Assembly: GCF_004010195.1 (NCBI RefSeq)
Contig: NC_057719.1
Location: 14,551,760-14,601,859 of the forward strand
Length of the DNA stretch: 50,100 nt
From: Chiloscyllium plagiosum
Taxonomy: Eukaryota
Direction: 5' to 3'
Positions within the stretch are counted from its first letter, which is position 1. Each line of letters opens with the position of its first letter. A program made the translations under genes and the position numbers. Below the pieces are notes generated by a model that ran no database searches, was not told the DNA's origin, and saw only the letters and a program-made list of their open reading frames with translations. This document shows, in pieces, positions 4,468 to 49,106 of the stretch.

Positions 4468-4887
4468 TTAGATTTATTTTTTGATTAGATTCCCTAGAGT
4501 ATGGAAACAGGCCTTCGGCCCAACAAGTTTACATCGACCCTCCAAAGAGTAACCCACCCAGACCCATTACCCTCCTCTATATTTACCCCAGACTAATAAA
4601 CGTCAATTCTCCTGTTCCCTGGATGCTGCCTGACCTGCTGCGCTTTTCCAGCAACACATCTTCAGCTCTGATCTCCAGCATCTGCAGACCTCACTTTCTC
4701 CACCTAACACTATGGGCAATTTAGAAAGGCCAATTCACCTGACCTGCACATCTTTGGATTGTGGGAGGAAACCGGAGCACCCGGAGGAAACTCACGCAGA
4801 CACGGGGAGAATGTGCAAACTCCACACAGACTGTCACCCGAGGTGAGAATCGAACTCGGGTCCCTGGTGCTGTGAGACAGCAGTGCA
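4468..4887 (-). mobile_element. HE1-type tRNA-derived SINE, interrupted by a PLE-terminus insert
   Basis: The minus strand reads GCACTGCTGTCTCACAGCACCAGGGACCCGAGTTCGATTC...TGTGTGGAGTTTGCACATTCTCCCC, with a CR1-like 3' end and (TAATC) tail. Confidence 0.9.
4598..4700 (+). mobile_element. PLE-terminus mini-element, family B (starts at AAACGTC of the hammerhead), inserted in HE1
   Basis: Near-identical to 39094-39197. Confidence 0.85.
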
Positions 4888-5079
4888 AGTTCACTCGAGA
4901 ACGTAACTTTAAGAGAAGTTCTGGGATTTACATATGAAAGAAGTGAAACTAACATGGTCATTCTAACAGATGAGAGACTTAACAAACAATCCAGGTCTTT
5001 TTCAATATATAATTTCAGTTACATCACACTGTAAACTTTTGCTGTAAATTCTATGTCCTTCGATCTTATACTCCACAAC

Positions 5080-5114
5080 CACCTGACGAAGGAGCAGCGC
5101 TCCAAAAGCTAGTG
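5080..5114 (+). ncRNA. Degenerate minimal hammerhead ribozyme motif, family A
   Basis: cac-CTGACGA-A-GGAGC-agc-GCTCC-aAAA-GCTA-gtg. The change of GAAA to AAAA is consistent with CpG decay. Confidence 0.7.
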
Positions 5115-5152
5115 CTTCCAAATAAACCTGTTGGTCTATAAACTGGTGTTGT

Positions 5153-5304
5153 GTGAATTGGCCATGCTAAATTGCCCGTAGTGTTAGGTGAATGGGGTAA
5201 ACGTAGGGGAATGGGTGTGGGTGGGTTGCTCTTCGGAGGGTCGGTGTGGACTTGTTGGGCCGAAGGGTCTGTTTCCACACTGTAAGTAATCTAATCTAAT
5301 CTAA
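5153..5304 (+). mobile_element. HE1 SINE 3' fragment
   Basis: GTGAATTGGCCATGCTAAATTGCCC...GGGCCGAAGGGTCTGTTTCCACACTGTA plus a (TAATC)n tail. Confidence 0.88.
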
Positions 5305-6632
5305 GTAAAATATAATTTGGCATTAGGAGCACATAGGTGACTGAAAATTGCAACTAAAATATTTCTTAAAATGCCAAGTGTATAAACCTCAATGCAGCTT
5401 GATGTTCTCTGGGATTGCTTTGGCCCATTTGATAGTGTTCAAAATGCTAACTCACTCAGGCAAATTAACAAATGCGTGTTTCTCGTTCGACCGATATTCC
5501 TCCCCCAGAGAAGTGTGTCACGGGGCATATTTGAATTCAGTCTCATTTGCATATATTTGTTGCTCCAGTGAATTCTGTAAGACCCAACAAAGTTATTTTC
5601 TTCTGTGCTGCAGATCACTTTGAACCCCTTGGCTTTTCCTGACTGAATTCAACCATATATTGCCAAGGAAGCTTTTCTGGGATTGATCTAAATCTGGGAT
5701 TATAAGCAAAAATTCAAATGCAGCCAAGACAGATCCAGAAATTTAGAAAATATGTCAGCTATTCATGCATTAATTTGTAGAAATTGAGAGCAGATGATTT
5801 CCTCAGTACTTGTTTACATGCTTTTGACAATCGGTTTTCTCATACAAGTTTTTTGTTTTTAAATTATTTATCTTAAATCCAAATGCATTTCTTCATTTGC
5901 CAGACTAAGATATAATCTATCTGCCCTCTGCTTTTACTCAGCAACAAAGCAGTAGCAACATGAATCTAATTCAACCTTCAGACCACAACATTCTATCTGC
6001 TACATGAAGATACATAAAGTTCAATAACAAATAACGATTGGAAGGGGACTTAAATATACCTCTGTCAAGGAAAATTCTCGATGCCGAAACATGCTGCAAG
6101 AAGCAATTGAGCAAGTATGGTAGAAAATAGCAATGCCAGGTCAGAAAAAGACTCGGAGAAAAAGGAAATATTAGATAGCAGAACATTATTTCCTCCTGTT
6201 CTTTATATTTTAGCAACCCTTTCACAGACTTGAATCCAGTGTTTTGTTTTAAATCTAGCCAGGCATCTAATCCCATTTGGCCCTATTTTCTGGTCTTTCA
6301 TGGTGTTTGTGGATCTCACTCAGTTTTCAATCTATTTTGGCACCATCCTTTAGATCTCTGAAGCTCTTCATATTTTGTGAATATGATCTAAATCAAACTC
6401 AGTATGAAAATGACTTAAGTACTTTGGTATTTATTGACACCAGTCATCTCTGTGTGCCATTTAATGATATAATATAATTCATTACAATTATTTCTGGAGC
6501 ATCTGTTTTTTTATATAGAAAACTGCTATTGATTTTCTTGCATTTTGTATTCTCTAATTTGTGTGAAAGTTGAAAGCAGGGAGGCAGTACTTTCAAACAT
6601 TATTTCCTTGTTCATGCTTGCAGCTGCCATGT

Positions 6633-7020
6633 AAGACCATAAGATATAGGACCAGAAATAGGCCATTCAGCCCATCAAATCTGCTCTGCCTTTCGATGAG
6701 ATCGTAGCTGATTTGACACTCCTCATCTCCACATTCCTGCCTTTTCCCCGTAACTCTTGGTTTCATTATTGATTAAAAATCTGTTTATCTCAGCCTTGTA
6801 TATATTTAATGACCCAACTTCAACAGCCCATTGTGGTAAAGAATTCCACAAATTCACAACCCTTTGAGAGAAGAAATTCATCCTCACCTCACTCATAATT
6901 GTGCAACCCTTTATTCCCAGATAATACCCGCTGGGCCTAGATTCTCCTATAAGAGGAAAACAATCTTACTGCATCTACCCTGTCAAGTCCCCTAAGAATC
7001 ATGTCTATTGCTATAAATTC
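6633..7020 (-). mobile_element. CR1 LINE 3' fragment
   Basis: AAGACCATAAGATATAGG...GGCCATTCAGCCC is a reverse-strand CR1 3' end. Confidence 0.85.
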
Positions 7021-8960
7021 ATAAGAACATAAGAAATAGGAAGAGGAGTAAACTATTCAGCCCCTCGAGCTTGCTCAACCCTTCCATAGGATGATGGCCA
7101 ATCTGACATTCCTCATATCTATTTCCTTGCCCTTTCCCCCATGTCCCTTGATTCCCCCACTAATCAAGAGCCAATCTATCACAGCCCTAAATACACACAA
7201 GGACTCGGACCCCACAGCTCTCTGTGAGTCCAAAGACTCACAACCTTCTTAGAGAAGAAATTCCTCCTCATCTCTTTCCTAAATTGGTGCCGCTTTATTC
7301 TGAGACCATACCGTCTGGCCCATGAAGAGAAACGTCCTCTCAGCATTTACATTTTCAGGAATTATATATGTTTCAATGAGATCACGTCTCATTTTTGTAA
7401 TTTCCAATGAATAGAGTCACAACGTTGTTCATTAAACGATCCCTCCATAAGGGAATCCTCCTCGTGAACCTTCTCTGGATTACCGCCACTTAAATGATAG
7501 CTTCCCTGAAATAAGGGGACAAAACTCCTCACAGTACTGATGTGATCTCACCAGCACCTTATACAGTTAGCAAGACTTTTCCTGAAATCCTATTAAAATA
7601 AGGACCAACATTCCATTAACCTTCCTGACTACCTGCCGCACCTGTGTGCTTGCTTTCTATGTTTCATGTGTGAGGCTTCACAAGTCCCTTTGTGTTGCAG
7701 CTTTCTGCAGTTTTCTCCATTTAAATAATATTCTGTTCTCTTGCCCTCCCTTCCAAAATGAACTGTCATACATTTTCCCACATTATACTCCATTTGTCAA
7801 CTCCTATTTAACCTATCAATATCTCTCTGTAAACTGTTTGTATCGCTCTCAAACCTACTTTTCCACCGGTTTTTATGTCGTCTGCAAATTTGGCTCCAAC
7901 CCATTCAGTTCCTTCCTCCAAGTCATTGTTAGATATTGTAAACAGTTGTGGTCACAGCATTGATACCTACTGGTAATAGGTTGCCAGCCTGAGAAAGAAC
8001 CCTTTATTCGCTGTTTCCTATTTAGGAGTCAAATCTCTACCCACACCAATATATCTCCTCCAACATCATGGGCTCTTATCTTGTAACTTAACCTTTTTTG
8101 AGGTATGTTTTCAAACAGGTGTCCAAATAAACAGGTGTCCAAATAAAACACCTCTACTGGTTTCCCTCTATCCAGTTTGGTTGAGTCTTTCACAAAAAAC
8201 TCTTGCCAGACACGATTTGCTTTCATGAAGCCATGTTGGCTCTGCCTGATTATATTATGTTAAAAAACACACAGCACACAGATTATAGTCCAACAGTTTA
8301 ATTGGAAGCACACTAGCTTTCCAATTAAACTGTTAGACTATAACCTGGTGTTGTGTGATTTTTAACTTTGGACACCCCAGTCCAACACCGGCATCTCCAA
8401 ATCATGATTATGTTATGCTGGTTTTCCAAATGTTCTGCTATTTCTTCCTTAAAAATTTATTCCAACATTTTTCTAACAATGCTGGGCTAATCCATCTCCA
8501 CCAACCCATTTCTGCCTCCCTCCCTTTCTGAATAGAGGTGTCACATCAATCGTTTTCCAAGCCTCTGGTACAATTCCAGATCTTTGGAAAGTTACAACCA
8601 AAGCATCCATGACCTTTGTAGCTATCTCTTTAAGATCCTAACATGAAGCCATCATGGCCAAGGAACTTATCTGTGTTCAGGCCCATTAGTTTGCCTATTA
8701 CTACTTCTCTCATGATGATGGTTCTTAATTTCTCCTCTATATTCTTTAGTATTAATGCAATGTTCAAAGTACCTTCCACTGTAAAGATTGATTCAAATAT
8801 CTGGTTAACTCCTCTACATTTCCTTGTTCCCCATAACTGTCTCCTCAGATTCATTTTTGAAGGGGCCTATGTTCTCTTTGATTTCTCCCTTTCATTGTTT
8901 TTACATCTAAAGAAGCTCATACTGTCAGTTTTTTGTATTTGCCTTCATAGTTTCTGGGCT
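7021..8960 (-). mobile_element. Decayed CR1 LINE, RT region to 3' end
   Basis: The tail reads ATAAGAACATAAGAAATAGG. Minus-frame remnants include KLDRGKPVEVFYLD, KIRAHDVGG and GKLMGLNTDKFLGHDG. Confidence 0.85.
8260..8404 (+). mobile_element. Fold-back PLE-terminus mini-element, family A, with 13-bp TSD
   Basis: Imperfect inverted arms at about 8259-8308 and 8319-8366, then a 38-nt tail. TSD: TGATTATATTATG (8247-8259) and TGATTATGTTATG (8405-8417). Confidence 0.85.
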
Positions 8961-9350: not shown

Positions 9351-10293
9351 TTCCCCTCCAAGCACGGGATTGATGTGGATTTCACCAGTTTCCCAAGGAC
9401 AGAAATCTCCCCCCGTCCTCACCTTCCACCCCACTAACCTCCAGATACATCGCATCATCCTTCACCATTTCCACCACCGGCAAACGCATCCCACCACGAG
9501 AGATATATTTCCTTTCCCACCCTATCCACTTTCCATAAAGACTATTCCCCCTGCGACTCTCTTGTCAGGTCCACATCCCTCACCAGCCCATCCTCCCCTC
9601 CCAGCACTGCCACTGCAGGAATTGCAAAACCTGCACCCACACCTCTCCCCTCACCTCCGCCCAAAGCCCCAAGGAGCCTTCTACATCCATCAGAAATTTG
9701 CCTGCACTTCCACACATCATTTACTGTATCCATTGCTCCCGATGTGGTCTCCTCTATGCTACTTACACGTCGCCTACTTGCAGAACGCTTCAGAGAACAT
9801 CTCCGGGACACACGCACGAAGCAACCCCACTGCCTTGTGGCTGAACACTTCAACTTCCCCTCCCACTCCACCAAGGACATGCAGGTGCTGGGCCTTCTCC
9901 ATCGCAAAACCCTAACCACCCAACACCTGGAGGAAGAACACCTTGGGACCCTCCAACCATGCCGGATTAATGTGGATTTCACCAGTTTCCTCATTCCCCC
10001 TCAGAATGCCTCATCTTCCAACTCGGAATCCTTCAATTACACCGGATTAATGTGGATTTCACCAGTTTCCTCATTCCCCCTCCCAGATCCAACCTTTCAA
10101 CTCAGCACTGCCCTTATGACCTGCCATATCTGTCCATCTTCCTTCCCCCCATCCACTCCACCCTCCTCTCTGACCTATCACCTTCACCCCATCTCCATCC
10201 ACCTATTGCACTCTCAGCTAACTTTCCCCCAGGCCCACCCCCCTCCAGTTTACGTCTCCATCCCCTCGGCTCACAAGCCTCATTCCTGATGAA
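9350..10293 (+). mobile_element. Penelope-like element fragment: RT C-terminal linker, GIY-YIG endonuclease pseudo-ORF and pyrimidine-rich 3'UTR, ending in a truncated hammerhead
   Basis: Frames encode VLTFHPTNLQIHRIILHHF...PTTRDIFP, an IYCIxCSRCGLLY-like motif, and RLLAERFREHLRDTR...VAEHFN...SHSTKDMQVLGL...GTLQP..INVDFTSF. It ends with CATTCCTGATGAA. Confidence 0.92.
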
Positions 10294-11420
10294 TACCTTT
10301 CCTAACAAGAATCTATCCACCTCTGTCTTCAAAAATAATCAAATAAGCAAAAAAACCAGACTCCTCTGGTTTCTAAAGTTCTAAAGTCACACAATCCTCT
10401 GTTCTCCTCAATTCTCTCTAAAAAGGGCAACCCCTCATTTTAAAACAAAGCTGACCACCAACAAGAAGATGACTATTCAGAATCTTCTCTACTTCAAATA
10501 AATCACCCCTCACTCTTCAAAACTCCAATGGAAACAAACTCAGTCTGTCCAACCTTTCCTCATAAGATACCTCACTCATTCCAGATTTTCATCTTGTAAA
10601 CTACCTCTCACATAATTGCATCCTTCGTTTAAAAGGAGACCAAAGCTGCACACATTGAATCCCTATAGTGTGCAAACAGGCCATTTAGCCCACACCAACC
10701 CTCTGAACGGCATCCCACCCCACCCTCCTACCCTGTATTCCCCACATTTAATCTACCTAGCCTGTACATCACTGAATGCTATGGGTAATTTTGCACAGCC
10801 AATCCACCTAACATGCACATCCTTGGACTGTGAGACGAAACTGGAGCACCCAAAGGAAACCCATGCAGACACGAGGAGAATGTGCAAACTTCGCACAGAC
10901 AGTTGCCTGAGGGTGGAATCCAACCCAGGTCCCTGGCACTGTGAGGCAGCAGTGATAACCACTGAGCCACTGTGCCACCTCACAGTATTTGAAATGTCTC
11001 AGAAATGTCCTGGAAAACTGAAGTATCCTATCCTTACTTTTATGTTCAGTTCCTCTTGAAATAAAGGATAGGATCCCATCAGCCTTCTTGATGCCAGATC
11101 CCTATATTAACATTTGAGCCATATGCAATAGGACACGTAAATCTGTCCCCACTTCAGAATTGGGCATATGTTCTCCATTTAAGGTCTGCTCTGCCTTTTT
11201 AAAGTGAACATCCTCACATTTCCCCACATTATTTTCAAATCTGCCAGATTTTGCTCATGCACCCAATCTAGCCATATCTGTCTTCATCCTCTTTGTGTCT
11301 TCATCACAACATAGCTTCCGATTTATCTTTTTATCATGTGCAAATGCTGCCGCCATGCTTTTCATTTCCTTCATTTATTTCAGTGACATAATTTGCATAA
11401 AGCTGAGGCACCAGCACAGA
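10294..11420 (-). mobile_element. Old CR1 fragment, interrupted by HE1
   Basis: Degenerate reverse-strand CR1 RT/3' sequence (TCCAACCTTTCCTCATAAG; CTCACATTTCCCCACATT; TCATGTGCAAAT). Confidence 0.7.
10655..10980 (-). mobile_element. HE1-type SINE, near full length
   Basis: The minus-strand head is GGTGGCACAGTGGCTCAGTGGTTATCACTGCTGCCTCACAGTGCCAGGGACCTGGGTTGGATTCC, with Pol III A and B boxes. Confidence 0.92.
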
Positions 11421-15155: not shown

Positions 15156-15612
15156 AACATTTGCCAGCCAAGCTGATGGAAACGATCTAAATCTATAACA
15201 ATATATCATACAGTGAATACAATTAATTTGCAATATTTCATTCTAGCTTCATTTACGCTTTTTCAAAACCAAAATGGCTTTTAAACTATGAAATTAAAGT
15301 GTAGATTTTAAGGCTGTGCTGTTCACTACACATCAACTACACATGAAAAATGGCAATTTGTTTATGTTTGTTTACAACTTATAAATATATTTGCTCAGAT
15401 AGCTCTTTTTTTCTGTTTTAAGTCCTGTGTGTTTTGATCTCCTAAATATCAAGCATTGTTTCCGTTTCTGTGTCCAGTTGGTTTTAAGACAAGTATGTTA
15501 ATTTCTGGAATAATACTCCCAACATGTGTGCCAGATTCATTTCCAGCCTCAAGCAGAGTTACAGAAAAAGCACATTGAGGGTGGAACCTGACCTGAATTC
15601 CCAAACTTTAAC

Positions 15613-15813
15613 GAGGCGAAAGTGAGGACTGCAGATGCTGGAGATCAGAGTCGAGATTAAAGTGGTGCTGGAAAAGCGTAGCAGGTCAGGCAGCATCTGA
15701 GCAGCAGGGAAATCGACGTTTCGGGCAAAAGCTTTTGCCTGAAACGTTGATTTTCCTGCTCCTCAGATGCTTCCTGCCCTGTTGTGCTTTTCCAGCACCA
15801 CTCTAATCCAGAC
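15613..15813 (-). mobile_element. Fold-back PLE-terminus mini-element, family B, with 15-bp TSD
   Basis: Arms of about 83 bp (15649-15731 and 15732-15814) meet inside hammerhead stem II (GGCAAAAG|CTTTTGCC). A 36-nt tail lies at 15613-15648. TSD: TTCCCAAACTTTAAC (15598-15612) and TTCCCAAATTTTAAC (15814-15828). Confidence 0.92.
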
Positions 15814-17609
15814 TTCCCAAATTTTAACCCAGGACAAGCCTTCATAACAGGGGATACCTTGCTAGTAACAATGATCCCAGTATCCGAGGGGCAAGAAGGC
15901 TGACTGGGTTGAGAAACATATCAGCCATGATCAAATCGTGGAACAGACTTGACAGGCTGAGTGGCTTAATTCTACATCATTTAACATTACTTTCATAAAC
16001 ATGTATTTCTCAACACACAAAATTGACTACATTTCAAAAGTCCTTAATTAACTGGAAGCCAAATCTTTAGATGACATTGTTTTGCTTTCAGCTGGAATTA
16101 TGTGTCCGAAGTGTCCAAAATAATTAATGGTTTTAATGGAGCAAATAATGGCTGCGCTCCAAAAATATTGGAATGACATTGAATGAGGCATTCATGCCCG
16201 ATAAGAATGGAGTGTTTTTAAAATGTTTGCCCTGTTAAACTTGTGCCCTATCAACATGTAATCCAGTTCTGAGCACCAGGTTGACACTGCATGAGGCACA
16301 TGTATCTGGTGAGAGTCGAGAGAATTTAAACTGTTAGAATATAGTGGTGAAAGCAGAATCTATAATTGCTTTTAAAAACAAGGCAGATGAATGTTTAAAG
16401 AAGAGAAAATTGATTCTGTATGAAGAATAAACGGGGATAGGACTAAGCATACACTTCTTTCAGGTAATTGGCATCAGCATGATAGACTTATAGCTTCCTG
16501 TACAGTGGAAATTATGCAACTTCGCTGGGCTCAAGTTATATACAAAACAGTACAGAATCAACTTGCAATGTTATAGCAATAAAGTTATTCGGGCATTTAA
16601 ACAAACGAGTAATAGCATGATATGGTGTAGTATATAGTGCAGAAATAGTGTTCTGAAAAATTGCCAAATTAGTTTAAAGTAAGCATTTCCAAACAGTGTG
16701 CAAGTGGTTGAGCTGTAAAGCACATCTGTGGCACAGATTTTCCGTTGACCTCCTACTGAAAGACAGCACTAGACTGTAGACATCACAAGCATGTTAAATA
16801 TCCCACATAAGATGGATGTTGCCTTTTTGTCACAGAGCCATCTCTTGGAATCCTGCTTGTTTCTTTGATTTGTTGCTTTCTGCTATATGCTTTAAAAGAA
16901 ATAAATATACTTCTACAGTACTACATTCGGCAGAACAAGTTCCTGAAGCCCAATAACTGTGAGCAAATTTGTTAAGTTATGGCAATTACATTAAATCCAC
17001 AATAATTCAAAGATTCAAAATCTTAAATATGAATGTCTTATTTTGTTTGGAAGGTTAATTTATTCTCAGTACCAGAATGATCTTCCCTATTTTAATCCTA
17101 CAATACAAGCAAATAAATATGTTTAGAAGCTGACTCTATCTCTTTAAGTGCTTTTTTATTAAAGTCTAAGATTTGTGCATACCAGCGGTGATTTTAATTG
17201 CAAATCCGAAAATCTCGGCAGTTGGGAGCCTCAAAGTCTGTGTTTCATCTGGACAGGACTCTATCCTGACCTTCTTTTATGGCTTCTAACATATTTTGCT
17301 GCTACACCCCCCCCCCCTCCCCCCACCTCCAAAAGTAGGCAATATCTGCCATGTGAAAGCATGTGCTTATGAGAAGTAATATAACTTGACTGACTGGCAC
17401 ACTCAGAAATCATACCCATGTTATACCATTTATCAAAAGCGCTCTATAAAGTTGTGATTTTTTTTGCCACACTGTGCAGAAACATAACAGTGCTATCTCT
17501 CCTGCCAATTAGTGTTTTTTCAATCATTTACCATTCAGTAGCCATAATGTAATCAGACCTGGTGTAATGTTAGCCTACCTGTATTTTTGAAAGTTTATCA
17601 CCTCTCCTG

Positions 17610-19475: not shown

Positions 19476-19699
19476 TTTGTATACATCCAAGACCCTGGAC
19501 AATATTCAGGTTGGAGCTGAAAAATGGCAAGTAACAATCGTACCACATAAGTGTTAGGCAATAATTATCGCCAACAAACTCTAATTATCGCACTTTGACA
19601 TTCCACAATCACTCTTTGACTAGAAACTTAACTGGATCGACCTCCTAAATACAGAGACTACAATAGCAGGTCAGAGGAAGGGTGGATAATCACATGATC

Positions 19700-20330
19700 A
19701 GCTGTTCACAATGCTCTACATCAAGCGCTGACTGAGTGACAGCTTTGGGGAACACTCGTGTCTGTCTGCAAAAATGACCTAAGTGTCTGGTTGATTGCCA
19801 CTTCAACACACCATCTTGTTCCCTGGCCAAAACATTAGCCTTGGATTTGCTGCAGTGCTCCACTCCAAGCTGGAAGAACAGCACCTCATTTTCCACTTGG
19901 GGACACTGCAGCCTTCGGAACTTTGTATCAAGTTCAATAATTTTAGGGCCTGAACACCTTCTTCCATGTCCTTTAGCCAACCCCTTCCCCTCATCCCAGG
20001 CCTTGTCATGACCTGGGCTTCCTTTAGCACAGCCGATCTATTTTCAACTACTTATGGCCCACATTAGGAACTCCTCTTTCTCCCTGGCTTACCAATAGAC
20101 ATCCCTTTGTCTGCCAAACTGTTTTTCTCTCCTTCTAGACTTCACCTCTACCTATCACTTACTCCTTTAGCCCACCCACCCACTCCCCCTTCCTGCCCCA
20201 CCACCACCTTTTGCTAACCTTCATTGATTCTGAAGAAGGGTCACTGGGCCCAAAGTGTTAATTTTGCTTTCTGTCCACAGATGCTGCCAAACCTGCTAAG
20301 TTTTTTTAGCAGTTTATGTTCTTGCTTTGG
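19700..20330 (+). mobile_element. Penelope-like element 3' fragment (GIY-YIG C-terminus, 3'UTR, degenerate family D hammerhead)
   Basis: F.EH, CHFNT and KLEEQHLIFHLGTLQPS...KFNNFRA*. At 20230-20260 the sequence is CTGAAGA-A-GGGTC-actg-GGCCC-AAAG-TGTT. Confidence 0.88.
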
Positions 20331-22187: not shown

Positions 22188-22314
22188 TGATGTGAAGGTG
22201 CCGGTGTTGGCCTGGGATGGACAAAGTTAAAAATCACATGAAGGAGCAGTGCTCTGAAAGCTAGTGCTTCCAAATAAACCTGTTGGACTATAACCTGGTG
22301 TTGTGTGATTTTTA
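22188..22314. mobile_element. Asymmetric fold-back PLE-terminus mini-element, family A
   Basis: A 38-nt tail (22188-22225) and short arm GTTAAAAATCACA precede an opposite-orientation copy that starts within the hammerhead (TGAAGGAGCAGTGCTCTGAAAGCTAGTG). Probable TSD: TCCATGTTTCTA and TCTATATTTCTA. Confidence 0.8.
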
Positions 22315-28068: not shown

Positions 28069-28229
28069 CTATTAAACAAAACAGAACTGAAAGATCTGAG
28101 GATGCTGTAAATCAGAAACAAAAACAGAAATTGCTGGAAAAGCTCAGCAGGTCTGGCAGTGTCTGTGGAGTGAAATCAGAGTTAATGTAGTGCTGAGGAA
28201 GGATCATACGACCTGACATGTTAACCCTG
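28069..28229. mobile_element. PLE-terminus mini-element, family D, with short inverted part and 10-bp TSD
   Basis: A minus-oriented terminus (GATGCTGTAAATCAGAAAC..TTGCTGGAAAAGCTCAGCAGGTCTGGCAG) is followed by plus-oriented CTGAGGA-A-GGATC..GACCT-GACA-TGTT. TSD: AAGAATCTAT at 28059-28068 and 28230-28239. Confidence 0.75.
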
Positions 28230-28357: not shown

Positions 28358-28564
28358 TAAAAACAAGTGTTGGAAAGCAGAGTCTAGATTAGAGTGGTGC
28401 CGGAAAAGAACAGCAGGTCAGGCAGCATCCAAGGAGCAGGAAAATCAACGTTTCAGACAAAAGCCCTTCATCAGGAATGATGAAGGGCTTTTGCCCAAAA
28501 CATTGATTTTCATGCTCCTTGGATGCTGCCTGACCTGCTGTGCTTTTCCAGCACCACTTTAATC
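28358..28564. mobile_element. Fold-back PLE-terminus mini-element, family B, with back-to-back hammerhead motifs and 15-bp TSD
   Basis: Arms at 28385-28473 and 28478-28566 surround a GGAA spacer. TSD: TAACCCCTGACTTGA (28343-28357) and TAACCCCTGATTTGA (28565-28579). Confidence 0.92.
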
Positions 28565-28588: not shown

Positions 28589-28712
28589 TGAAGGGCTTTT
28601 GCTCGAAACATCGAGTCTCCTGCTCCTCAGATGCTGCCTGACCTGCTATGCTTTTCTGTCATTACTCTTATCTTGACTCTAATCTCCAGCGTCTGCAGTC
28701 TTCGCTTTTGCC
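28589..28712 (+). mobile_element. Single-arm PLE-terminus mini-element, family B, with perfect 13-bp TSD
   Basis: TGAAGGGCTTTTGCTCGAAACATCGA...CTCCAGCGTCTGCAGTC. TSD: TTGAATACAGTGA at 28576-28588 and 28713-28725. Confidence 0.9.
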
Positions 28713-28945: not shown

Positions 28946-29045
28946 ATGTACACCCACCCCCAGTCCTGAAGAAGGGTTACACCCGAAACATTGACTTCTC
29001 CACCTCCTGATGCTGCCTGGCTTGCTGGGTTCTTCCTGCTTGCCA
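28946..29045 (+). mobile_element. PLE-terminus mini-element, family C, with perfect 16-bp TSD
   Basis: TSD: TCCAACATATTTACAT at 28930-28945 and 29046-29061. It is homologous to the terminus of the PLE at 32935-33560. Confidence 0.9.
28962..28996 (+). ncRNA. Minimal type I hammerhead motif, family C
   Basis: AGTC-CTGAAGA-A-GGGT-tac-ACCC-GAAA-CATT-GACT. Stems I and II are perfect 4-bp stems; stem III has a CG-to-CA change. Confidence 0.8.
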
Positions 29046-31792: not shown

Positions 31793-31937
31793 TTCTGGAT
31801 CAATGGTGCTGGAAGAGCACAGCAATTCAGGCAGCATCGAGGAGCTCAATGCTGCCTGAATTGCTGTGCTCTTCCAGCACCATTGATCCAGAATCTGGTT
31901 TCCATCATCTGCAGTCATTGTTTTTACCTCATTTTTA
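31793..31937 (+). mobile_element. Fold-back PLE-terminus mini-element (B-related) with perfect 46-bp arms and 16-bp TSD
   Basis: 31792-31837 is the exact reverse complement of 31849-31894. TSD: CCTCGTCCTCTCCTTA (31777-31792) and CCTCATCCTCTCTTTA (31938-31953). Confidence 0.92.
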
Positions 31938-32334: not shown

Positions 32335-32427
32335 ATTCCTGATGAAGGGCTTATGCCCGAAACGTTGATTCTCCTGCTCCTCAGATGCTGCCTGACTGGC
32401 TGTGCTTTTCCAGCACCACACTCTTGA
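32335..32427 (+). mobile_element. Single-arm PLE-terminus mini-element, family B, with 11-bp TSD
   Basis: TSD: CCCCAACCCTG at 32324-32334 and 32428-32438. Confidence 0.9.
32337..32368 (+). ncRNA. Minimal type I hammerhead ribozyme motif with intact core, family B
   Basis: tc-CTGATGA-A-GGGC-ttat-GCCC-GAAA-CGTT-ga. Stem III is the loopless palindrome AACGTT. Confidence 0.85.
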
Positions 32428-32759: not shown

Positions 32760-33745
32760 CGACCCAGTGGTATTGTTACTGGACCACTACTGCAGACACC
32801 CAAGTAATATTCCACAGACCCAGGTTCAAATCCCCCATGGCAGTTAGTGGAATTTGAATTTAATAAAACCCTGGAATTCAGAGTTTAATGATGACCATGA
32901 AATCATTGCTAATTGTTGGGGAAAAATACACTAACAGGAGGTGGGAAGAACATAGCAAGGCAGACAGCATCAGGAGGTGGAGAAGTCAACATTTCAGGAG
33001 TAACTGTTCTTCAGGACTGGGGCTGGAGTAAGAAGAGCTCAAGATAAAGAGGGGGTGGCGGAGGGTTTTGGGTGGGGAGAGGGGCAGCATGGTAAAGTAG
33101 TGATAGGTAAACACAGGTAGAGGGTACGGCCTGCTTTATTGATGGGAGGAATGAATCCATTTGGTGGCTGGAAGGGTTAATAAGTAGAATGAAAGGGAGG
33201 AGGAGGGGCTGGACAGGGAGTCAGGTGGATAGGAAGGGAGGTTATTTGAAACTGGAAGTTTTCCAGGCGGAAGATGAGGTGTTGTACCTCAGTGAGTCGT
33301 TCCCTAAGTTTACGTTTGGTCTCACTGATGTAGAGAAGACCACATTGGAAGCACCGGATACAGTAAACTCAGTTGGAGGAGAGGTAGGTGAACCTCTATC
33401 TCACCTGGAAGGACTGTTTGGGGCCCTGGATGGAGATAAGGGGGGTGGTGTGCTGGCAGGTTTTGTACCTTTTACAGTTGCAGGGGAAGGAACCCGGGGC
33501 TTCAGCAGGGAGTATGGCATGAACCAAGGAATGATGAAGGGAGCGGTCCTTGCAGAAGGCAGAAACACCCACCAGCTACACTTATGTTCTTTCAGGAAGG
33601 AAGCTACTGTCAGGTCTTCACATGACTCCAGACCCACAGGATTATGGTTGATTCTTAACAGTATTTAACTTAACAATTAGGGATGGGAAATTAATGCTGG
33701 TCTGGTCAGTGACACCCACGTCCGAAGAACAAAAATGAAAAAACT
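32760..33745 (+). mobile_element. Shark SINE, family 2, split by a PLE (pieces about 32760-32930 and 33565-33745)
   Basis: Head: CAGTGGTATTGTTACTGGAC..CCCAGGTTCAAATCCC..GGAATTTGAATTT. Tail: ACATGACTCCAGACCCACAG..CAATTAGGGATGGGAAATTAATGCTGG. Confidence 0.85.
32935..33560 (-). mobile_element. Penelope-like element 3' fragment with GIY-YIG pseudo-ORF and family C hammerhead terminus
   Basis: The minus strand encodes IQGPKQSFQVR..FTYLSPN.VYCIRCFQCGLLYISETKRKLR. The hammerhead remnant AGTC-CTGAAGA...GAAA-TGTT-GACT lies at 32984-33018. Confidence 0.9.
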
Positions 33746-35105: not shown

Positions 35106-36013
35106 TGTAAACAGGACGTTTCTTTAAAGACTGACAAATGTTAGATCTCCAACTTAAAATAACAGCTCTCCACCACCTTCATGACGTCAACTAGAGATAG
35201 GCATTAAATGCTGGCCAGCCAGCGAAGCCCGCATCCCACAAATGAAATAAAATAAAAAGTACATAAGTCCATGCAAGTCACATTTCCAATTGTACACTTT
35301 CCTGGTAAGGTTAACAAGGAATGCCAGGAGAGAATACTTACACTGTTAATTATGGATGTACTTCAAATTCTGCATAAAACCTACTTCTTCCACCGTACCT
35401 TTGATCATGCAGCTTAAAGTCTCCTCTCAGAGCTTGCTGTCAGCTCTGTAAAGCATCTTGGAATATTTCACTTTATTTAAAGGGACTATTATTATCAATA
35501 AAAGTTTTTTTGATTAAAGTTTTGCAGCATGTTAGTGGGCAATTAATCTGCAAATGCTGAAACCTCATGAAAATTACGGAGACATTAAGGGTGAGATGCA
35601 GTTTTCGCAAAACTCGTGCTGAAATGTTGCAAATCATCCGACAAATTGGGGCAATTTGCAATTGACAGGGTGTATCTTTTTCACCATTGGCTCATTTGCA
35701 TGCACAGTTCATACACCATTATTTTTTCTCAGCAAATTCTGGCAATTATTTTGACAAGAGTCAGAGAGTGATAGAAATGTACAACACAGAAACAGACCCT
35801 TCAGTCCAACTTGTCCAGCTCGACCAGATATCCTAATCTAATCTAGTCCCATTTGGACAATGTTCCCCTAAACCCTTCCTATTCATAAACCCATCCAGAT
35901 GCCTTTTAAATGCTGCAATTGTACCAGCCTCCACCAGTTCCTCTGGCAGCTCATTCCATACACGCACCACCCTCTGTGCTGTGGTTCTGTTCGCCGAGCT
36001 GGAAGTTTTTGTT

Positions 36014-36053
36014 GCAAACGTTTCGTCCCCTGGCTAGGCGACATCATCAGTGC
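36014..36053 (-). ncRNA. Hammerhead ribozyme motif, family E (left arm, minus strand)
   Basis: GCA-CTGATGA-T-GTCgCCT-agcc-AGGgGAC-GAAA-CGTT-TGC. Confidence 0.85.
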
Positions 36054-36275
36054 TTGGGAGCCTCCTGCGAAGCGCTTCTTTGATGTTTCCTCCGGTGTTT
36101 ATAGTGGTCTGTCCCTGCCGCTTCCGGTTGTCAGTTTCAGCTGTCTGCTGTAGTGGTTGGTATATATACTAACCACTACAGCGGACAGCTGAAACTGAAA
36201 ACCGGAAGTGGCAGGGACAGACCACTATAAACACCGGAGGAAACATCAAAGAAGCGCTTCGCAGGAGGCTCTCAA

Positions 36276-36315
36276 GCACTGATGATGTCGCCTAGCCAGA
36301 GGACGAAACGTTTGC
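36276..36315 (+). ncRNA. Hammerhead ribozyme motif, family E (right arm, plus strand)
   Basis: GCA-CTGATGA-T-GTCGCCTAGCCAGAGGAC-GAAA-CGTT-TGC. Confidence 0.85.
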
Positions 36316-39038
36316 AACAAAAACTTCCAGCTCGGCGAACAGAACCACAACAACGAGCACCCGAGCTACAAATCTTCGCACAAACTTTGACCACCCTCTG
36401 TGTCAAAAGGTTGCCCCTGAGGTCCCTTTTAAATTTTTCGCCTCTCACCCTCAACCTATGTCCTCTAGATCTGGACTCCCCCATCCCAGGGAAAACACCT
36501 TGTGTATTTATCCATGCCCTCATGAGATTATAAACCTCTATAAGGTGATCCCTCAGCCTCCAACTCTCCAGGGAAAACAGCCCCAACCTGTTCAGCCTCT
36601 CCCTGTAGCTCAAATCCTCCAACCCTGACAACATCCTTGTAAATCTTTTCTGAATCCTTTCAAGTTTCATAACACCTTTCCTATAAGAGGGAGACTAGAA
36701 TTGCACACAATATTCCAAAAGTGGCCTAACCAATGTCCTGTACAGCTGCAACATGACCACCCAACTCCTGTACTCAGTGCTCTGACCAATAAACGAAAGC
36801 ATACCAAACGCCTTCTTCACTATCCTATCTACCTGCAACTCCACTTTCAAGGGACTATGAACTTGCACTCTAAGGTCTCTTTATTCAGCGACACTCCCCA
36901 GGTGTATAAATCCATTAAGTGTATAAATCCTGCCCTGATTTGCCTTTTCAAAATGTAGCACTTCACATTTATCTAAATTAAACTCCATCTGCCACTCCTC
37001 AGCCCATTGGTTCATCTGATCAAGGTCCTGTTGTAATCTGAGGTAACCCTCTTCACTATCCACTACACCTTCAATTTTGATGTCATCTGCAAACTTACTA
37101 ATTATTACCTCCTATTATTCACAATCAAATCATTTATATAAATGACAAAAAACAGTGGTCTCTGCACTGATCCTTGTGGCACACCACTGGTCACAGGCCT
37201 CCAGTCTGAAAAAACAACCCTCCACCACCACCCTCTGTTTTCTACCTTGGAGCCAGTTCTGTATCCAAATGGTTACTAGTTCTCCCTGTATTCCATGAGA
37301 TCCAACCTTGCAAACAGTCTACCATGAGAAACCTGGTCGAATGCTTTACTGAAGTCCACATAGATCACATCCACCACTCTGCCCTCATCAATCCTCTTCA
37401 TTTGTTCTTCAAAAAAAACTCAAGCAGGTTAGTGAGACATGATTTCCCGTGCTCAAACCCATGTTGACTATCCTTAATCAGTCCTTGCCTTTCAAAATAT
37501 ATGTACATCCTGTCGCTCAGGATTCCTTCCAACAACCTGCCCATCACCAATATCTGGCTCACCGGTCTATAGTTCCCTGGCTTTTCCTTAACACCTTTCT
37601 AAAAAAGTGGCACCACATTAGCCAACCTTCAGTCTTCCTGCACCTCATCCATGACTATCGATGATACAAATATCTCAGCAAGGGGCCCAGCAATCACTTC
37701 CCTAGCTTCCCACAGAGTTCTAGGCTACACCTGATCTGATCCTGGGGATGTATCCACCTTTAAGATATCCAGCACCTCCTCCTCTGTAATATGGACATTT
37801 TTCAAGATGTCACCATCTATTTCCCTACATTCTATATCTTTCAAATCCTTCTCCACAGTAAACACTGATGCAAAATACTAATTTAGTATCTCCACCATCT
37901 CTTCTGGCTCCACACAGAGGCTGCCTTGCTGATCTTTGAGGGGCCTTTTCTCTCCCTAGATATCCTTTTGTCCTTAATGTATTTATATAATCCCTTTGGA
38001 CTCTCCTTAACCCTATTTGCCAAAGCCATTTCATGTCCCGTATTTGCCCTCCTGATTTTCCTCTTAAATGTACTCCTACTGCCTTCATACTCTTCTAAGG
38101 ATTCACTCAATCTCTGCTGTCTATACCTGGCATACGCTTCACATTTTTTTCTTAACCAAAACCTCAATTTCTCCAGTCATCCAGCATTCCCAACACCTAC
38201 CAGCCTTGCCCTTCACCCTAACAGGAATGTACTGTCTCTGGACTCTTGTTCTCTCATTTTTGGCTTCCCATTTTTTAGATGTCCCTTTACCTGCAAACAT
38301 CTGCCCCCAATCAACTTTGAAAGTTCTGGCCCAATACCCTCAATATTGATCCTCCTACAATTTACAACTTCAACTAAAGTATACACAGGGTATGGGTTTC
38401 ATGTAGGAGACGTACCAGCTTACAAACTGGTGAGAGTCCCATGTCAACTGTTTTTGTGAAGACCTGCCATATTACTGCCAATCACACAACTAAATGGGCA
38501 GTGATGGACCTTCTAAAGGATATAGGGACCCAGAGGCAAAGATCCCACCTGCTGATAGCTACCAGAAAAACCAAAGACTAGTTAATCATCATTGCTCAGC
38601 AGCACTACTGCAGAATGGTGGCCAATGCCGATAATATTCCCAGCTGAGACCAAGACTGCTGAAGGCTTTGGGCACAGGAGTACCACCAGAGGGTGGGGGT
38701 CATGGAGAACCTAGATGAGGTTTTGTTTCAATTCATTCAAAGGATGAGGGTGCCGCTAGCCAAGCCAGCATTTATTGTCCATCCCTAATTGCCCAGAGGC
38801 CAGTTAAGAATCAACCACATTGCTGTGGCTCTGGAGTCACGTGTCGGCCAGACCAAGTAAGGATGGCAGTTTTCACCCCTAAAGGGAACCAGATGGGTTT
38901 TTCAAATAATCGATAATGGATTCATGGTTATCATTAGACTCTTAATTCTAGATTTTGCTGAGTTCAAAGTACACCATTTGCCATGGTGGGATTCAAACTC
39001 ATTTCCCCAGATCATTACCTGGGTCTCTGGATTAACAG

Positions 39039-39198
39039 CTGAAAATGTGTTGCTGGAAAAGCNNNNNNNNNNNNNNNNNNNNNCTTATGCCCGAAACGTC
39101 GATTCTCCTGTTCCCTGGATGCTGCCTGACCTGCTGTGCTTTTCAAGCAACACATTTTCAGCTCTGATCTCCAGCATCTGCAGACCTCACTTTCTCCT
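39039..39198 (+). mobile_element. Fold-back PLE-terminus mini-element, family B, containing an assembly gap; 15-bp TSD
   Basis: The arms are AGCTGAAAATGTGTTGCTGGAAAAGC and GCTTTTCAAGCAACACATTTTCAGCT. The hammerhead 3' half is CTTATGCCCGAAACGTC, and there is a 35-nt tail. TSD: TCTCTGGATTAACAG and TCTTTGGATTAACAG. Confidence 0.88.
39063..39083. other. Assembly gap (21 N)
   Basis: Direct reading. Confidence 1.
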
Positions 39199-40439
39199 TC
39201 TTTGGATTAACAGTCTAGCGATAATGCCACTAGGCCAGTGACCAGGCACTGAGTGCCTCCGAAATGGGGAACCACCCCCTCGAAACTCAACAGTAAATCG
39301 ATGAAGATTTGCTATTCAGAATTCTTGTATGGTGCGTTTTTAACTGGGTAAATATTAGTGGTGATGGGAGAGCCCTTAAATAGACCAGAAATTGCATAAC
39401 TGGGGCAGAAGGAGGAAAGTGGATGGTGCTGAGCCTTCACTCTAATGCCTTATAAACTGCGGCCTGTCATCAAACTCCGCACAGCAGAGATTAAGTTTCA
39501 CCCAGAGTTAATATTTGTTTCCAACAAGTGCCTCTGAGAGGTGGAAGACTGCTGCTTTCAATCTGGTAATTTGCAACAGCAAGAACAGATATGTACAGAC
39601 TGAAAACTAGAACATCCACTCATGATCAGGTTAAAGGGTGCTGGCACATTGATCATTGGGACATAGCCAAGAGACAATGAGAAAGAATGAGAGGAATGGA
39701 AGGACAGCATGGAGTAGAGGCAAAGAAACAAAGAGAGAATGTGATAGTGTCCAAGGAAAGATGAAGGCAGACTGGGGGGAAAGTAATCTTCAAAGGTTAG
39801 GTTGATGAGGGAGAATGTAAATGTTAAAGTAAAAAGTATGGAAGCGAAGGAAATCTGTGAAACAACAGGCGGCTTTTTTTTTTTTAATATGAGCTCAAAA
39901 ATAATATATCATGTAATTGATAGCCACTTCCAATTGGAATGATAATTAAATAAGTTTGGTTGCAGGTTCTGAATGAATATGTTGAAGTATTTTATCGATA
40001 AGTTTTTTTAACACATCGATTTCTTATATTGGGCACGTTATGAATAGGGAATTATAAATTCCAGCTATTGAAAAAGAAATATTTTGGATGGTTCTGATTC
40101 AATTGGCTCCTCTACTTCTTGATAGGCTTTCCTGACTGATCATACAAGTTTAATTCTTTGCTCCTGTGTTTCTTTGAGCCAATTTGCAATTGGAAAAATA
40201 TGATGTATGGAGTGTGCTGCCAGAAATAAGTATGATACATCGAATTTGCAAGACTGTTAATACAGTGTTGATTTTATATATCGCCACATGTGGGTGTGTG
40301 TCACAGGTTTTAAGTCATAATTTGCGTGCCACATTTATACACATATATATTTCATACTTCACATCCGTGAACTGACAAATTACAACTGAATAAATAGGCC
40401 ACATACCGATCAAAAGATTACAACATTATGTAATCCTCA

Positions 40440-42540: not shown

Positions 42541-42549
42541 CCTCACAGT

Positions 42550-46561: not shown

Positions 46562-46594
46562 CACACACACACACACACAGGCGCACACACACAC
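46562..46594 (+). repeat. (CA)n microsatellite
   Basis: Direct reading. Confidence 0.95.
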
Positions 46595-46629
46595 GTTGAA
46601 CTATGTCATAGTATGAGGGATACAAATGA

Positions 46630-46762
46630 TGTAGGAACGTAGAAAGTAGGAGTAGGCCATTCAGCCCTTCAAGCCCTTCAAGCCTGTCCCATCATTCAGT
46701 ATGATCATGCCTGCTCATCCAACTCAGTGCCATGTTCCTGTTTTATCCCCACACCCTCTGAA
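46630..46762 (-). mobile_element. CR1 3' end
   Basis: AGTAGGAGTAGGCCATTCAGCCCTTCAAGCC..ATGATCATG. Confidence 0.8.
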
Positions 46763-48454
46763 CATAGATTTAATGTGATTGTTGTTACAGATTCATTGCA
46801 AAATGACTAATAAATATTTTATGATATTTTGTATTTAAAAGAAGTAGGCAGAACAGAAATGAAGGAAGAATAACCCTGATACTAAAGAATAGGATAAAGA
46901 CCTTAAAATCATATCAAACTCCTACTTGAAAGCATTCAAAGTGTTCAGGTAATTCTTCCCTTCCTTAAGGTGCCAGAATATCTGCAGCTCATTCTCCAAC
47001 TCTATGATGCTGAACTGAGCTGGCTGCAGGCAATATGTGAGGATGCAGTTGTCCATTATCACAAACTTCAACATGGTGTACCGATGGCATTGTGCCTGGC
47101 CTGCTGTGCCTGTGTTACTCTGTGTATTCCCTTACTTATTTAGTTAATTGTTCAATTGAATCAACTATTTTAATTTCAGTTAAGTAATTGATTTTATCTA
47201 GTTTAAGCTTATAATTGAGAAAGGTTATAGCAAATTGCAGTTTCCCCGTTTAGAGACAAAAGTGAAACAGGAGGTCAATGGAAATTGAAAACCAACAACC
47301 TTTTCTTTCTCTGAATTGAGTTCCCACTTGCACCACATTTTGGGCTTTAGGAATATGTAAATGAAGCACACTTTCATGATCACACTTTGTTCCGTATTGT
47401 GCTCTTAAAACCAGCAGCAGAAAAGATTTCCATCCTATCAGCCTGGGCTGGAACTGAAACAGGGCCCCTATAAGGTCAGAGTTTAAGCTACCGTCACACA
47501 GTTCCTCTCTAATCATTGTGTGTAAGCCAATCTTAACAATGAAACAACAGGAAGGTGTCAGAACCTCAAATTTCAGAAATCATTAATGGGGCTTGGAAGC
47601 TAAATAATAATTTATTCCACTTTGGAACAAAACCATCAAGACAATACTGTGATTTGGTTTTTACTCACTTTGTACAGGCTAGATTTAAAGATCTGAAGCC
47701 ATTTATTAGATTCAGCGCATTCTCTCTAAATCTGATCAACAATAAACGCTGTCATTCATTGTTACAGTCCACAATGGGAGCATAAGACATCTGCTGTTAC
47801 ATGCTCCTCAGTTGTCCTTTTCTCCACCCTGTAGCATTCTTTCCCCAAACTGTCACATTTCCATTAAATTCAGAGATCCACTTGGTTATCAAACTTATAT
47901 TTGAGGTACACAAATTTACTTCAATGTTATTCAATCACCAAAATAATTGTTGATCAGTACATTATTTACTTGCAGGAAATAATCAAAAATAATGTCACTG
48001 TCTCAGAACATAATCTCTCATATAATCTTTTCCAAATCCTTTCAACATGTGTGTGTCCCTCACCCTCTCAGTGCCTTTCAACTCTCCAAGTGTAACAACA
48101 AATCTTCTGAGCAATGACACAGGATAGATATGAAAGGTTAATACATCTCAGTTATAACTAAGACATTGCGTGGTGTTTTGCCAAATTGTTACCTTATGCT
48201 TATTGAAAAATATTAAAACGCAACAGACGTCAGTGTTCAAACATCAAGATATGCTATACCACAACTAACTTGAAATGACCTCAGCATGTCTTATTTACTC
48301 CCTGCAGCATTTTACTTTTTGACATCACAGGGCAAGCAAAGCTAAAGGCATCTCCATTCCAAAGAACTAGCTTTGTAAACGGGCAGTTATAATATTCCTG
48401 CCTTGATAAAAGATTGTATCCTTTCACATTGAATAATGCTATGGGTGATTAAAT

Positions 48455-48965
48455 GATTACAGCTTCAATCCATCCGTCCAACTCGTCCAAGCCAACCAGG
48501 TATCCTAAATTAAATCAGTCTCATTTGCCAGCATTTGGCCCATATCCCTCTAAACCCTTCCTATTCATATACCCAACCAGATGCCTTTTAAATTTGTAAT
48601 TGCACACATTTCCACCACTTGTGGCAGCTCATTTCATACACATACCACCCTCTGCATGGAAAAGGTTGCCTTAGGTCCCTTTTCTATCTATCTTCTCTCA
48701 CCTTAAACTCATGCCCTCCAGTTTTGGAGTCCCCCACCCTGAGAAAAAGACCTTGACTAATCACCTTATCTACACCCCTGATGATTTTATAAACCTCTAT
48801 AAGGTCATCCTTCAGCATCCAACACTCCAGGGAAAATAGCCCCAGCTTATTCAGCCTGTCCCTGTAGCTCAAACCCTCCAACTCTGGCAAAAGATTTGTA
48901 AATCTTTTCTGCAACCGTTCAAGTTTAACAAATCTTTCCGATAGTGACGAGACCAGAATTGAACA
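48455..48965 (-). mobile_element. CR1 3' fragment
   Basis: VKLERLQKRFTNLLPELEGLSYRDRLNKLGLFSLE...LIEVYKIIRG. Confidence 0.92.
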
Positions 48966-48999
48966 TATTATTAAAACTATCAATAATCGAACGCATTTA

Positions 49000-49106
49000 A
49001 GAAACACAGAGAATGCTCGAGAAATGCTGCAGATCTGGCAGCATTTGTGGAGACAAAAAAAAGTGAACAATTTGAGTCCAATATGAACTAAGTTCTGAAG
49101 AAGGAT
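49000..49106. mobile_element. Degenerate PLE-terminus fold-back remnant (D-like), truncated by CR1
   Basis: A minus-oriented GAATGCTCGAGAAATGCTGCAGATCTGGCAGCATTTGTGGAG is followed by plus-oriented GTTCTGAAGAAGG. Confidence 0.55.

Follow-up and report, generated by a model that had tools for sequence, protein, structure and literature searches.

The short inserts scattered through a 50,100-nucleotide stretch of the Chiloscyllium plagiosum genome (the window) are non-coding end modules, each a minimal hammerhead plus a tail, of protein-coding Penelope-like elements (PLEs). Each was likely made anew by the parent RT-endonuclease, which would prime the two strands of the nicked target from two start sites on the RNA, frequently within the 5' leader of the transcript. 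A reading made from the sequence alone (the sequence-only reading) had offered a choice between extremely 5'-truncated PLEs and independent non-autonomous ribozyme retroelements. The PLE origin and the abundance that it described stand, but the either/or does not, as neither alternative holds. The inserts are not plain random truncations, because their 5' ends are strongly non-random, and they are not independently amplifying families, because doublet junctions are almost all distinct, the subfamilies of family B are mixed, the trees are interleaved and whole-unit arrays are absent.

All 13 starts named as non-coding inserts from PLE families were confirmed as real PLE-terminus inserts. At least ten had been credited with TSDs of 10-16 bp, which agrees with our count: a TSD was present at 11 of the 13, clear at 8260, 15613, 28069, 28358, 28589, 28946, 31793, 32335, 35979 and 39039 and weak at 22188 (12 bp with 2 mismatches), and none was found in the flanks of 4598 and 49000. 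Eight of the 13 are head-to-head doublets, a structure overlooked before. Empty-site (uninterrupted) homologues were found at 6 of the 13 tested sites (4598, 8260, 31793, 32335, 35979, 39039); two matches for 15613 were left uncounted because the one inspected is the flank of 15613 itself. The inserts and coding fragments of the window are given below, doublets without a strand and arm positions counted from the ribozyme cut.

2477..5159, + strand: family A PLE 3' fragment (putatively Neptune/Nematis-type); nhmmer matches 2477-2829 and 4311-5159; hammerhead core at 5083; interrupted by later insertions that we take to be CR1-like and SINE-like
4598..4700, + strand: family B single arm, from -6 through the end of the long tail; CUGANGA box and TSD both absent; 6 uninterrupted target homologues
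8260..8404: family A head-to-head doublet, left tail short, right long, no core; TSD 8247-8259 / 8405-8417
9354..10294, + strand: family B PLE 3' coding fragment (GIY-YIG), ending inside the hammerhead core
15613..15813: family B doublet, left tail long, right short, junction in stem II loop; TSD 15598-15612 / 15814-15828
19696..20327, + strand: family D PLE 3' fragment with GIY-YIG end, 3' UTR, decayed hammerhead and short tail; TSD 19683-19695 / 20328-20340
22188..22314: family A doublet, inverted long-tail stub plus short-tail arm from -25; weak TSD 22176-22187 / 22315-22326
28069..28229: family D doublet, long-tailed inverted arm plus decayed hammerhead stub; TSD 28059-28068 / 28230-28239
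28358..28564: family B doublet, minus arm with intact core; short+short by script, although by eye the left arm resembles a long tail with a deletion; TSD 28343-28357 / 28565-28579
28589..28712, + strand: family B single arm, -26 to long tail; TSD 28576-28588 / 28713-28725
28946..29045, + strand: family C single arm from -43, short tail, core intact; TSD 28930-28945 / 29046-29061
31793..31937: family B tails-only doublet (+10 / +18), short plus long; TSD 31777-31792 / 31938-31953
32335..32427, + strand: family B single arm from about -32, short tail, core intact; TSD 32324-32334 / 32428-32438; 70 empty-site homologues
32935..33565, - strand: family C PLE 3' coding fragment with hammerhead and short tail
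35979..36389: family E doublet (putatively Penelope/Poseidon-type, young), arms both from -148, short plus long tail, two intact cores; TSD 35966-35978 / 36390-36402; 107 empty-site homologues
39039..39198: family B doublet, inverted short-tail stub, 21-base N gap that partly masks the structure, long-tail arm; TSD 39024-39038 / 39199-39213
48998..49106, - strand: family D-type inverted arm plus sense stub truncated by a later repeat; no TSD

All five families, A to E, are the ends of protein-coding RT/GIY-YIG PLEs. The translated family profiles contain RT thumb or core plus GIY-YIG, in the arrangement of endonuclease-bearing PLEs, whose single ORF encodes RT and then, at the C-terminus, a GIY-YIG motif that contains two cysteines. 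A Pfam search did not detect the GIY-YIG endonuclease itself, and gave no match for the reading frame of the family B fragment. The match of families A-D to the termini of PLE fragments was upheld for all four. The family B link had been thought to rest on terminal sequence only, yet it holds firmly, since in long coding copies the coding part continues into this very hammerhead and tail (relatives L152-L180 of the fragment at 9354..10294). As had been stated, family E has no coding parent in the window, but its parent RT was found elsewhere in the genome, at L318, where a 411-aa open stretch matches RVT_1 (E 7.6e-9) and is followed by a GIY-YIG motif; none of 11 upstream stretches reached a full-length family E copy. 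The ORF of family A contains a CX4CxxC linker as well as a GIY-YIG domain. A CX2-5CxxC linker between RT and endonuclease was found in the translations of A, B, C and D, and was absent from the family E loci L318 and L221. According to passages of Craig 2021 (PMC8557442), this linker marks Neptune/Nematis and is missing in Penelope/Poseidon; judged by its presence or absence, families A-D are of putative Neptune/Nematis type and family E of putative Penelope/Poseidon type. The hammerhead-tail module is repeated before the ORF, as a partial tandem (pseudo-LTR), in family B loci L352 and L354.

A search with a strict minimal-hammerhead descriptor, as had been suggested, yielded 101 matches in 1.25 Mb versus 0-3 in each of 5 shuffles. 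The motif had been correctly recognized, but calling the inserts hammerhead-bearing was an overstatement: the full core (CUGANGA...GAAA..UH) is present in only 4 of the 13 (28358 minus arm, 28946, 32335, 35979), and an intact core in 118 of 423 sampled arms. An Rfam scan of the window reported no hammerhead family, and its miRNA matches reflect palindromes. The motif has the features of the minimal type I, with an unpaired base before stem II, a palindromic stem III and covarying stems; across families, base pair 1 of stem I is C-G, U-A or A-U, stem II pairs are swapped and the dinucleotide is CG or GC. The metazoan PLE hammerheads described in parts of Cervera and De la Pena 2014 (PMC4209133) share the unpaired base and the palindromic 2-nt stem III, as well as a G-C closing pair. 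They are mostly solo, with some opposite-strand pairs 100-700 bp apart, and are attributed there to truncated PLEs; compared with the approximately 4,000 (coelacanth) and 9,000 (Xenopus) per genome, the density is much higher here, with descriptors that differ.

The genome sample contained 327 insertions in 1,215,767 non-N bases (about 270 per Mb), or one per 3.7 kb, close to the earlier estimate of roughly one copy per 4 kb. The 423 arms form 96 head-to-head pairs and 231 singles, the bulk of units measure about 100-240 bp, and at least 7.5% of the bases sampled belong to these families. TSDs are 12-15 bp long and flank 51 of 96 pairs; among singles the count is 22 of 231 and among controls 1 of 192. 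The 209 singles without adjacent TSD are only partly accounted for; hidden short inverted arms sought in singles were near the control level (33/160 versus 23/159).

Tails stop at two sites, with a median offset of 37, 35 and 38 nt for families A, B and E, and the 96 pairs have the form of an inverted 5'-truncated copy with a one-sided tail (offset 35-38 nt). Within pairs the two tail lengths are coupled. Among the 81 pairs of families A, B and E, 72 were classifiable and 70 of these combine one long with one short tail, versus 78 long and 79 short tails among the singles. The TSD-flanked pairs comprise 46 long+short, no long+long, no short+short and 5 unclassifiable cases. At 15 of 16 family E loci chosen for a long tail, the neighbouring inverted arm ended at query position 181-192 of 226. 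At the first threshold family D looked less coupled, with 7 long+short and 5 short+short pairs and 3 that were unclassifiable; only a threshold set afterwards gave 10 long+short, 1 long+long, 1 short+short and 3 unclassifiable pairs.

Doublets of this kind have been attributed to self-priming or DNA fold-back of a single cDNA, with the endonuclease trimming the tail on one arm. Passages of the older literature propose this inverted-repeat model for palindromic junctions (Arkhipova 2013, PMC3846280) and for the tail (Craig 2021, PMC8557442). Near-symmetric pairs exist (-148/-148, -775/-771, -273/-265), and partner arms are more similar to each other than random arms, as fold-back would have it; the few shared changes in family E resemble CpG decay, at loci that were query-selected. 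Unequal arms are where the published self-priming account fails. Nine pairs have arms that differ by more than 100 nt. In seven the short-tailed arm extends further 5', so that it is neither a copy of the long-tailed arm nor the source of the extra tail, and in two the asymmetry is opposite. Simple DNA fold-back is excluded because either arm can be the longer and neither fold-back order yields both. As singles are also half long and half short, we regard fold-back in any form as very improbable.

When 5' breakpoints were plotted against position, as had been proposed, they were strongly non-random. They concentrate 30-39 nt upstream of the ribozyme cut at about 30 times background, within a wider zone from -20 to -47. 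The termination rate is 0.066 per nt at -30 to -39, or 0.080 in junction-pinned pair arms, versus about 0.002 beyond -70. This pile-up refutes plain random 5' truncation of a LINE-like element for families A, B and D. The flat rate beyond -70 and the scattered 5' ends of family E copies selected for length, in a family with little pile-up (23 arms), are what random truncation would predict, but overall we give this explanation hardly any credence. A sharp peak of 5' ends at the cut (+1) was sought and not seen, and self-cleaved RNA was rejected as the template. A splice to the AG that immediately precedes the hammerheads of B, C and D was rejected as well: junctions have no common upstream exon, deletions fail to resume exactly at the AG, and the joint was absent among the 15 matches listed of 214 in the contigs.

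The shared breakpoint zone is best explained by the start of the parent RNA. Arm lengths are correlated within pairs (both long in 8 versus 1.6 expected), which could also be a product of coupled synthesis. Arms stop in the zone in 102 of 111 cases when their partner is short, versus 3 of 20 when it is long. ORF-leading modules that reach -20 end at -25 to -47 in 12 of 14 cases among the best 20 hits of one family (Fisher p = 7e-5 versus the long-partner arms). Alternatively, priming could be twin, as we propose, with the pile-up arising where RT pauses on the 3' copy, at the 5' edge of a hammerhead that is folded or bound by protein; the stubs would then be stalled truncations and not leader run-offs. 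In A, B and D the zone overlaps the 5' strand of stem I as well as the edge of the core, the hammerhead is protein-assisted (Frangieh 2024, PMC11167929), and three of the 28 long B copies have internal deletions after which the sequence resumes at -23, -25 and -30, which is compatible with stalling on a long template. Pausing does not account for the passage of 17 of the 20 long-partner arms through a zone at which most ORF-leading modules stop, and the stops are located beyond stem II, not before it. We therefore consider pausing unlikely, though a more serious contender than fold-back.

The templates could also be short non-autonomous RNAs, either retrozyme- or SINE-like monomers or read-through of existing stubs, mobilised in trans by PLE proteins. 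In line with this, 311 of the 423 arms are short, in one TSD-bounded insert (C3 sample) the arms are separated by about 180 bp of foreign sequence, passages of Arkhipova 2013 report trans-mobilisation of rotifer pLTRs, and retrozymes are proposed as PLE derivatives in a part of a recent preprint (bioRxiv 10.64898/2026.07.22.740005). A search for short-only clades with shared breakpoints, also proposed earlier, had a mixed outcome. The common 5' zone is real and short/long labels are mildly clustered in the B tree (21 changes versus an average of 25.6 in shuffles, of which 13 in 500 were as low). However, short and long copies interleave in the trees, the A tree has no clustering (11 changes versus 10.6), and all five B subfamilies contain long and short members (the B1/B4 motif split is noisy and serves only to show long copies in each group). 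Moreover, distinct junctions number 95 among the 96 doublets, the core is not intact in most stubs, and no head-to-tail arrays of whole units were found in 16 same-strand neighbour pairs. The fixed shared structure and short-only clades of SINE- or MITE-like elements are thus missing. Animal non-LTR retrozymes, as portrayed in parts of PMC7229834 and the same preprint, are likewise non-coding, hammerhead-related and PLE-derived, with long TSDs and dispersed monomers, but they are head-to-tail tandems with a ribozyme per unit and circular RNA, whereas the inserts described here are head-to-head doublets or solo stubs with a core that is mostly not intact. Short RNA templates seem improbable to us, more so than pausing.

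Together, these observations are consistent with synthesis by the parent element. In the mechanism that we propose, the target strands would be nicked 12-15 bp apart in a staggered fashion, and one ribonucleoprotein, plausibly a dimer, would synthesise two separate RNA-templated cDNAs, one per start site, which would then be joined head to head via microhomology. Judging from the DNA copies only, the 5' end of the RNA would lie about 30-45 nt before the cut, and leader-primed synthesis would therefore run off after about 95-140 nt. The ribozyme would be a passenger, self-cleaved RNA not being the usual template. We are evenly divided between belief and doubt on the stricter version, in which a single dimeric RT-endonuclease starts at two fixed RNA sites separated by 35-38 nt, one site being reserved strictly for each target strand, and does so mostly on the 5' leader of its own mRNA, leaving about a million genomic fossils by a reaction undescribed in the literature searched.

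The element class is already known, as truncated PLE ends with minimal hammerheads have been published (Cervera 2014, Arkhipova 2013, Frangieh 2024). Insertion units of endonuclease-bearing PLEs, as described in passages of PMC3846280 and PMC8557442, also have head-to-head arms, a one-sided tail (30-40 bp there), a TSD with inverted units, microhomology joins without TSD and strong 5' truncation; by comparison, the units described here are mostly of about 100-240 bp and very numerous, with the long-short rule and unequal arms counted. For PAc, a Poseidon element of Anolis, two adjacent RT start sites set the tail in vitro and both target strands are cut and extended (Frangieh 2024), which our tail offsets and paired arms match. 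A dimer is predicted for PAc, uncleaved RNA is the template and the hammerhead lies at the pLTR-ORF junction. That study detected no difference between strands in bulk, and it describes neither within-insertion coupling nor run-off stubs; the signature described here reaches Neptune/Nematis-type families.

The transposition mechanism of PLEs is still called undefined in a passage of Craig 2021, and the value of the present data is both mechanistic and practical. The long+short rule and leader run-off each yield a sharp prediction for the in vitro system already in use. If the stricter version holds, SINE-like stubs with a common 5' zone would be the main product of an autonomous element, without a non-autonomous master, and the same reaction would account at once for the one-sided tail, for the inverted pLTR and for the surplus of solo minimal hammerheads in animal genomes. 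Common breakpoints of short retro-copies need not indicate a SINE or retrozyme, which bears on the counting of 'retrozyme monomers'. Hairpin doublets make up about one third of the insertions; they leave gaps in assemblies and, when transcribed, could be a source of double-stranded RNA.

At all 13 positions listed in the sequence-only reading, a profile search found short inserts matching the termini of Penelope-like elements (PLEs). TSDs of 10-16 bp, which had been proposed for most of them, were clear at ten inserts and weak at 22188, and were absent at 4598 and 49000. For six target sites, uninterrupted homologues were present in other repeat copies. The inserts had also been described as hammerhead-bearing. 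A strict minimal-hammerhead descriptor gave 101 matches in 1.25 Mb, versus 0-3 in each of five shuffles, and the stems covary across families, but the full core was present in just 4 of the 13 inserts. Eight of the 13 are head-to-head doublets, i.e. two copies (arms) of the terminal module of minimal hammerhead and tail, an arrangement absent from the earlier account.

We then considered a larger sample, consisting of the window, the adjoining 200 kb and, from each of ten other large contigs, one 100-kb stretch at a round coordinate (in total 1,215,767 non-N bases; picked blind to content, yet non-random). Using nhmmer and family profiles from about 30-50 fetched copies each, we identified 423 terminal arms (213 of family B, 97 of D, 84 of A, 23 of E and 6 of C), which were grouped into 96 close pairs and 231 singles. 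These 327 insertions, an approximate count as some singles are distant pairs and divergent families escape the profiles, amount to one per 3.7 kb, in agreement with the suggested density of about one per 4 kb. These families make up at least 7.5% of the sampled bases; extrapolation to the whole genome (3.56 Gb) gives roughly 0.96 million insertions. At least three more E-like hammerhead variants with differing stem II and tails were seen (samples C2, C7, C10, C12, C20), so the family total exceeds five. The available part of the whale shark paper reports Penelope elements and 10.8% unclassified repeats.

In long B copies, the RT and GIY-YIG coding sequence is followed by the hammerhead and tail found in the short inserts (stubs). 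Family E, said to be without coding parent in the window, indeed has none there, but a locus elsewhere (L318) has an RVT_1 match followed by a GIY-YIG motif, and family E is the terminus of a young element. The CX2-5CxxC linker, present in A-D and absent in E, marks Neptune/Nematis and is missing from Penelope/Poseidon, according to the accessible text of Craig 2021 (PMC8557442). In two B copies, L352 and L354, partial tandems with hammerhead and tail directly preceding the ORF indicate that the module was at both ends of the source transcript. In two other family B ORFs (L335, L350), RT is preceded by a long low-complexity segment rich in Thr, Ala and Pro, reminiscent of inserts in rotifer PLE ORFs. 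In L352 (oriented 440-720), acceptor-like sites of polypyrimidine plus AG immediately precede the hammerhead, immediately follow the end of the long tail and occur within the beginning of the family B ORF; no copies spliced at these sites were found.

Tails end at either of two positions separated by 35-38 nt, which match the two RT start sites of an Anolis element in vitro (Frangieh 2024, PMC11167929). Long and short tails were equally common in A/B/E singles (78 versus 79). Among 81 A/B/E pairs, 70 were long+short, one long+long, one short+short and 9 unclassifiable; with TSD confirmation, 46 were long+short, 5 unclassifiable and none long+long or short+short. For D, the first threshold gave 7 long+short and 5 short+short pairs, because the D reference tail is poor; a threshold set afterwards gave 10 long+short, one long+long and one short+short. 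Among 16 E loci selected because they had a long tail, 15 had a short-tailed inverted arm next to it. N gaps between the arms of several TSD-bounded long+short pairs (samples C34, C10, C7) indicate that assembly fails at these palindromes and that long doublets are undercounted.

Fold-back of one cDNA is contradicted by 7 pairs whose short-tailed arm exceeds the partner arm by >100 nt at the 5' end, and by 2 with the reverse: a fold-back copy neither outgrows its template nor gains a missing tail, so two RNA-templated cDNAs are needed. TSDs were found in 51/96 pairs versus 22/231 singles (controls 1/192 and 1/456; mode 14-15 bp), an excess that use of both staggered nicks would predict. At L057 (sample C1 66980-67500), one TSD surrounds an inverted arm and a leader module (a copy preceding the ORF) whose sequence continues into the beginning of the ORF and then jumps to a second module, a template switch between the two module copies. 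In L065 (sample C3 49560-50020, G000:C3:80049560-80050020), a B doublet flanked by a TSD, the arms are separated by about 180 bp of non-PLE sequence, possibly acquired by capture or 5' transduction.

In A, B and D, pooled and counted upstream of the ribozyme cut, 5' termination was 0.066 per nt at -30 to -39 versus about 0.002 beyond -70, and 0.080 per nt at -30 to -39 for junction-pinned pair arms. This concentration rules out plain random truncation, and no sharp 5'-end peak was found at the ribozyme cut itself in A, B and D arms. Family E had little pile-up among its 23 arms. The commonest 5' ends in B and D lie at or near the A of a motif resembling the initiator consensus YYANWYY. Contigs from four public runs, of guessed type and possibly representing genomic copies, show inverted joints and loose ends at matching positions.

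Arm lengths within pairs are correlated, with both arms long in 8 pairs versus 1.6 expected. Stops in the pile-up zone (about -20 to -47) were found for 3/20 arms with a long partner versus 102/111 with a short one. The upstream side was fetched for 20 of 39 listed B copies in which the tail leads on to the beginning of the ORF; of these, five end at -1 or further downstream, one at a gap (-10), 12 at -25 to -47, and 2 pass. Leader copies therefore stop where stubs stop (12/14 in the zone versus 3/20 long-partner arms, p = 7e-5). In three unselected leader copies, the starts are at -33, -21 and -25; the L352 and L354 leader modules extend past the zone. On these sequence data, the simplest reading would place the RNA 5' end in the zone, with priming on the leader and run-off at that end generating a stub. 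A pause at stem I may instead account for these stops, and three long B copies have jumps resuming at -23 to -30, which would fit such stalling.

The inserts are genuine and abundant, and belong to a known kind; their interpretation as independently amplifying ribozyme retroelements is not supported. Junctions (family and breakpoint pair) were distinct in 95 of 96 doublets, many with microhomology, and short and long copies occurred together in all five B subfamilies. In trees with one arm per insertion and about 80 columns, short and long copies interleave, with mild clustering in B (B, 21 label changes versus a shuffle mean of 25.6, 13/500 shuffles as low; A, 11 versus 10.6). None of the 16 same-strand neighbour pairs in the sample formed an array of whole units, so the inserts are not retrozymes as defined in the available portions of Cervera 2020 (PMC7229834) and bioRxiv 10.64898/2026.07.22.740005.

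Internal initiation has been published (Frangieh 2024, PMC11167929), as have, from the accessible parts of the respective papers, inverted pLTRs (Arkhipova 2013, PMC3846280), the one-sided tail (Craig 2021, PMC8557442; Arkhipova 2013, PMC3846280) and solo and opposite-strand minimal hammerheads (Cervera 2014, PMC4209133). Neither the long+short coupling count nor the leader run-off model was found in the literature searched, which comprised main texts, largely of papers free of subscription. The remaining interest lies in this mechanistic signature, which is directly testable.

Neighbouring repeats in the window include copies that we take to be CR1 and SINE elements. An inverted repeat at 131-513 (84 nt, 98% complementary), on the 5' side of a LINE fragment (RVT_1 at 791-1525), is a 5' inversion of a presumably CR1-like copy. 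A further D-type tail fragment, inverted and lacking a TSD, lies at 29582-29631 and was not among the listed inserts.
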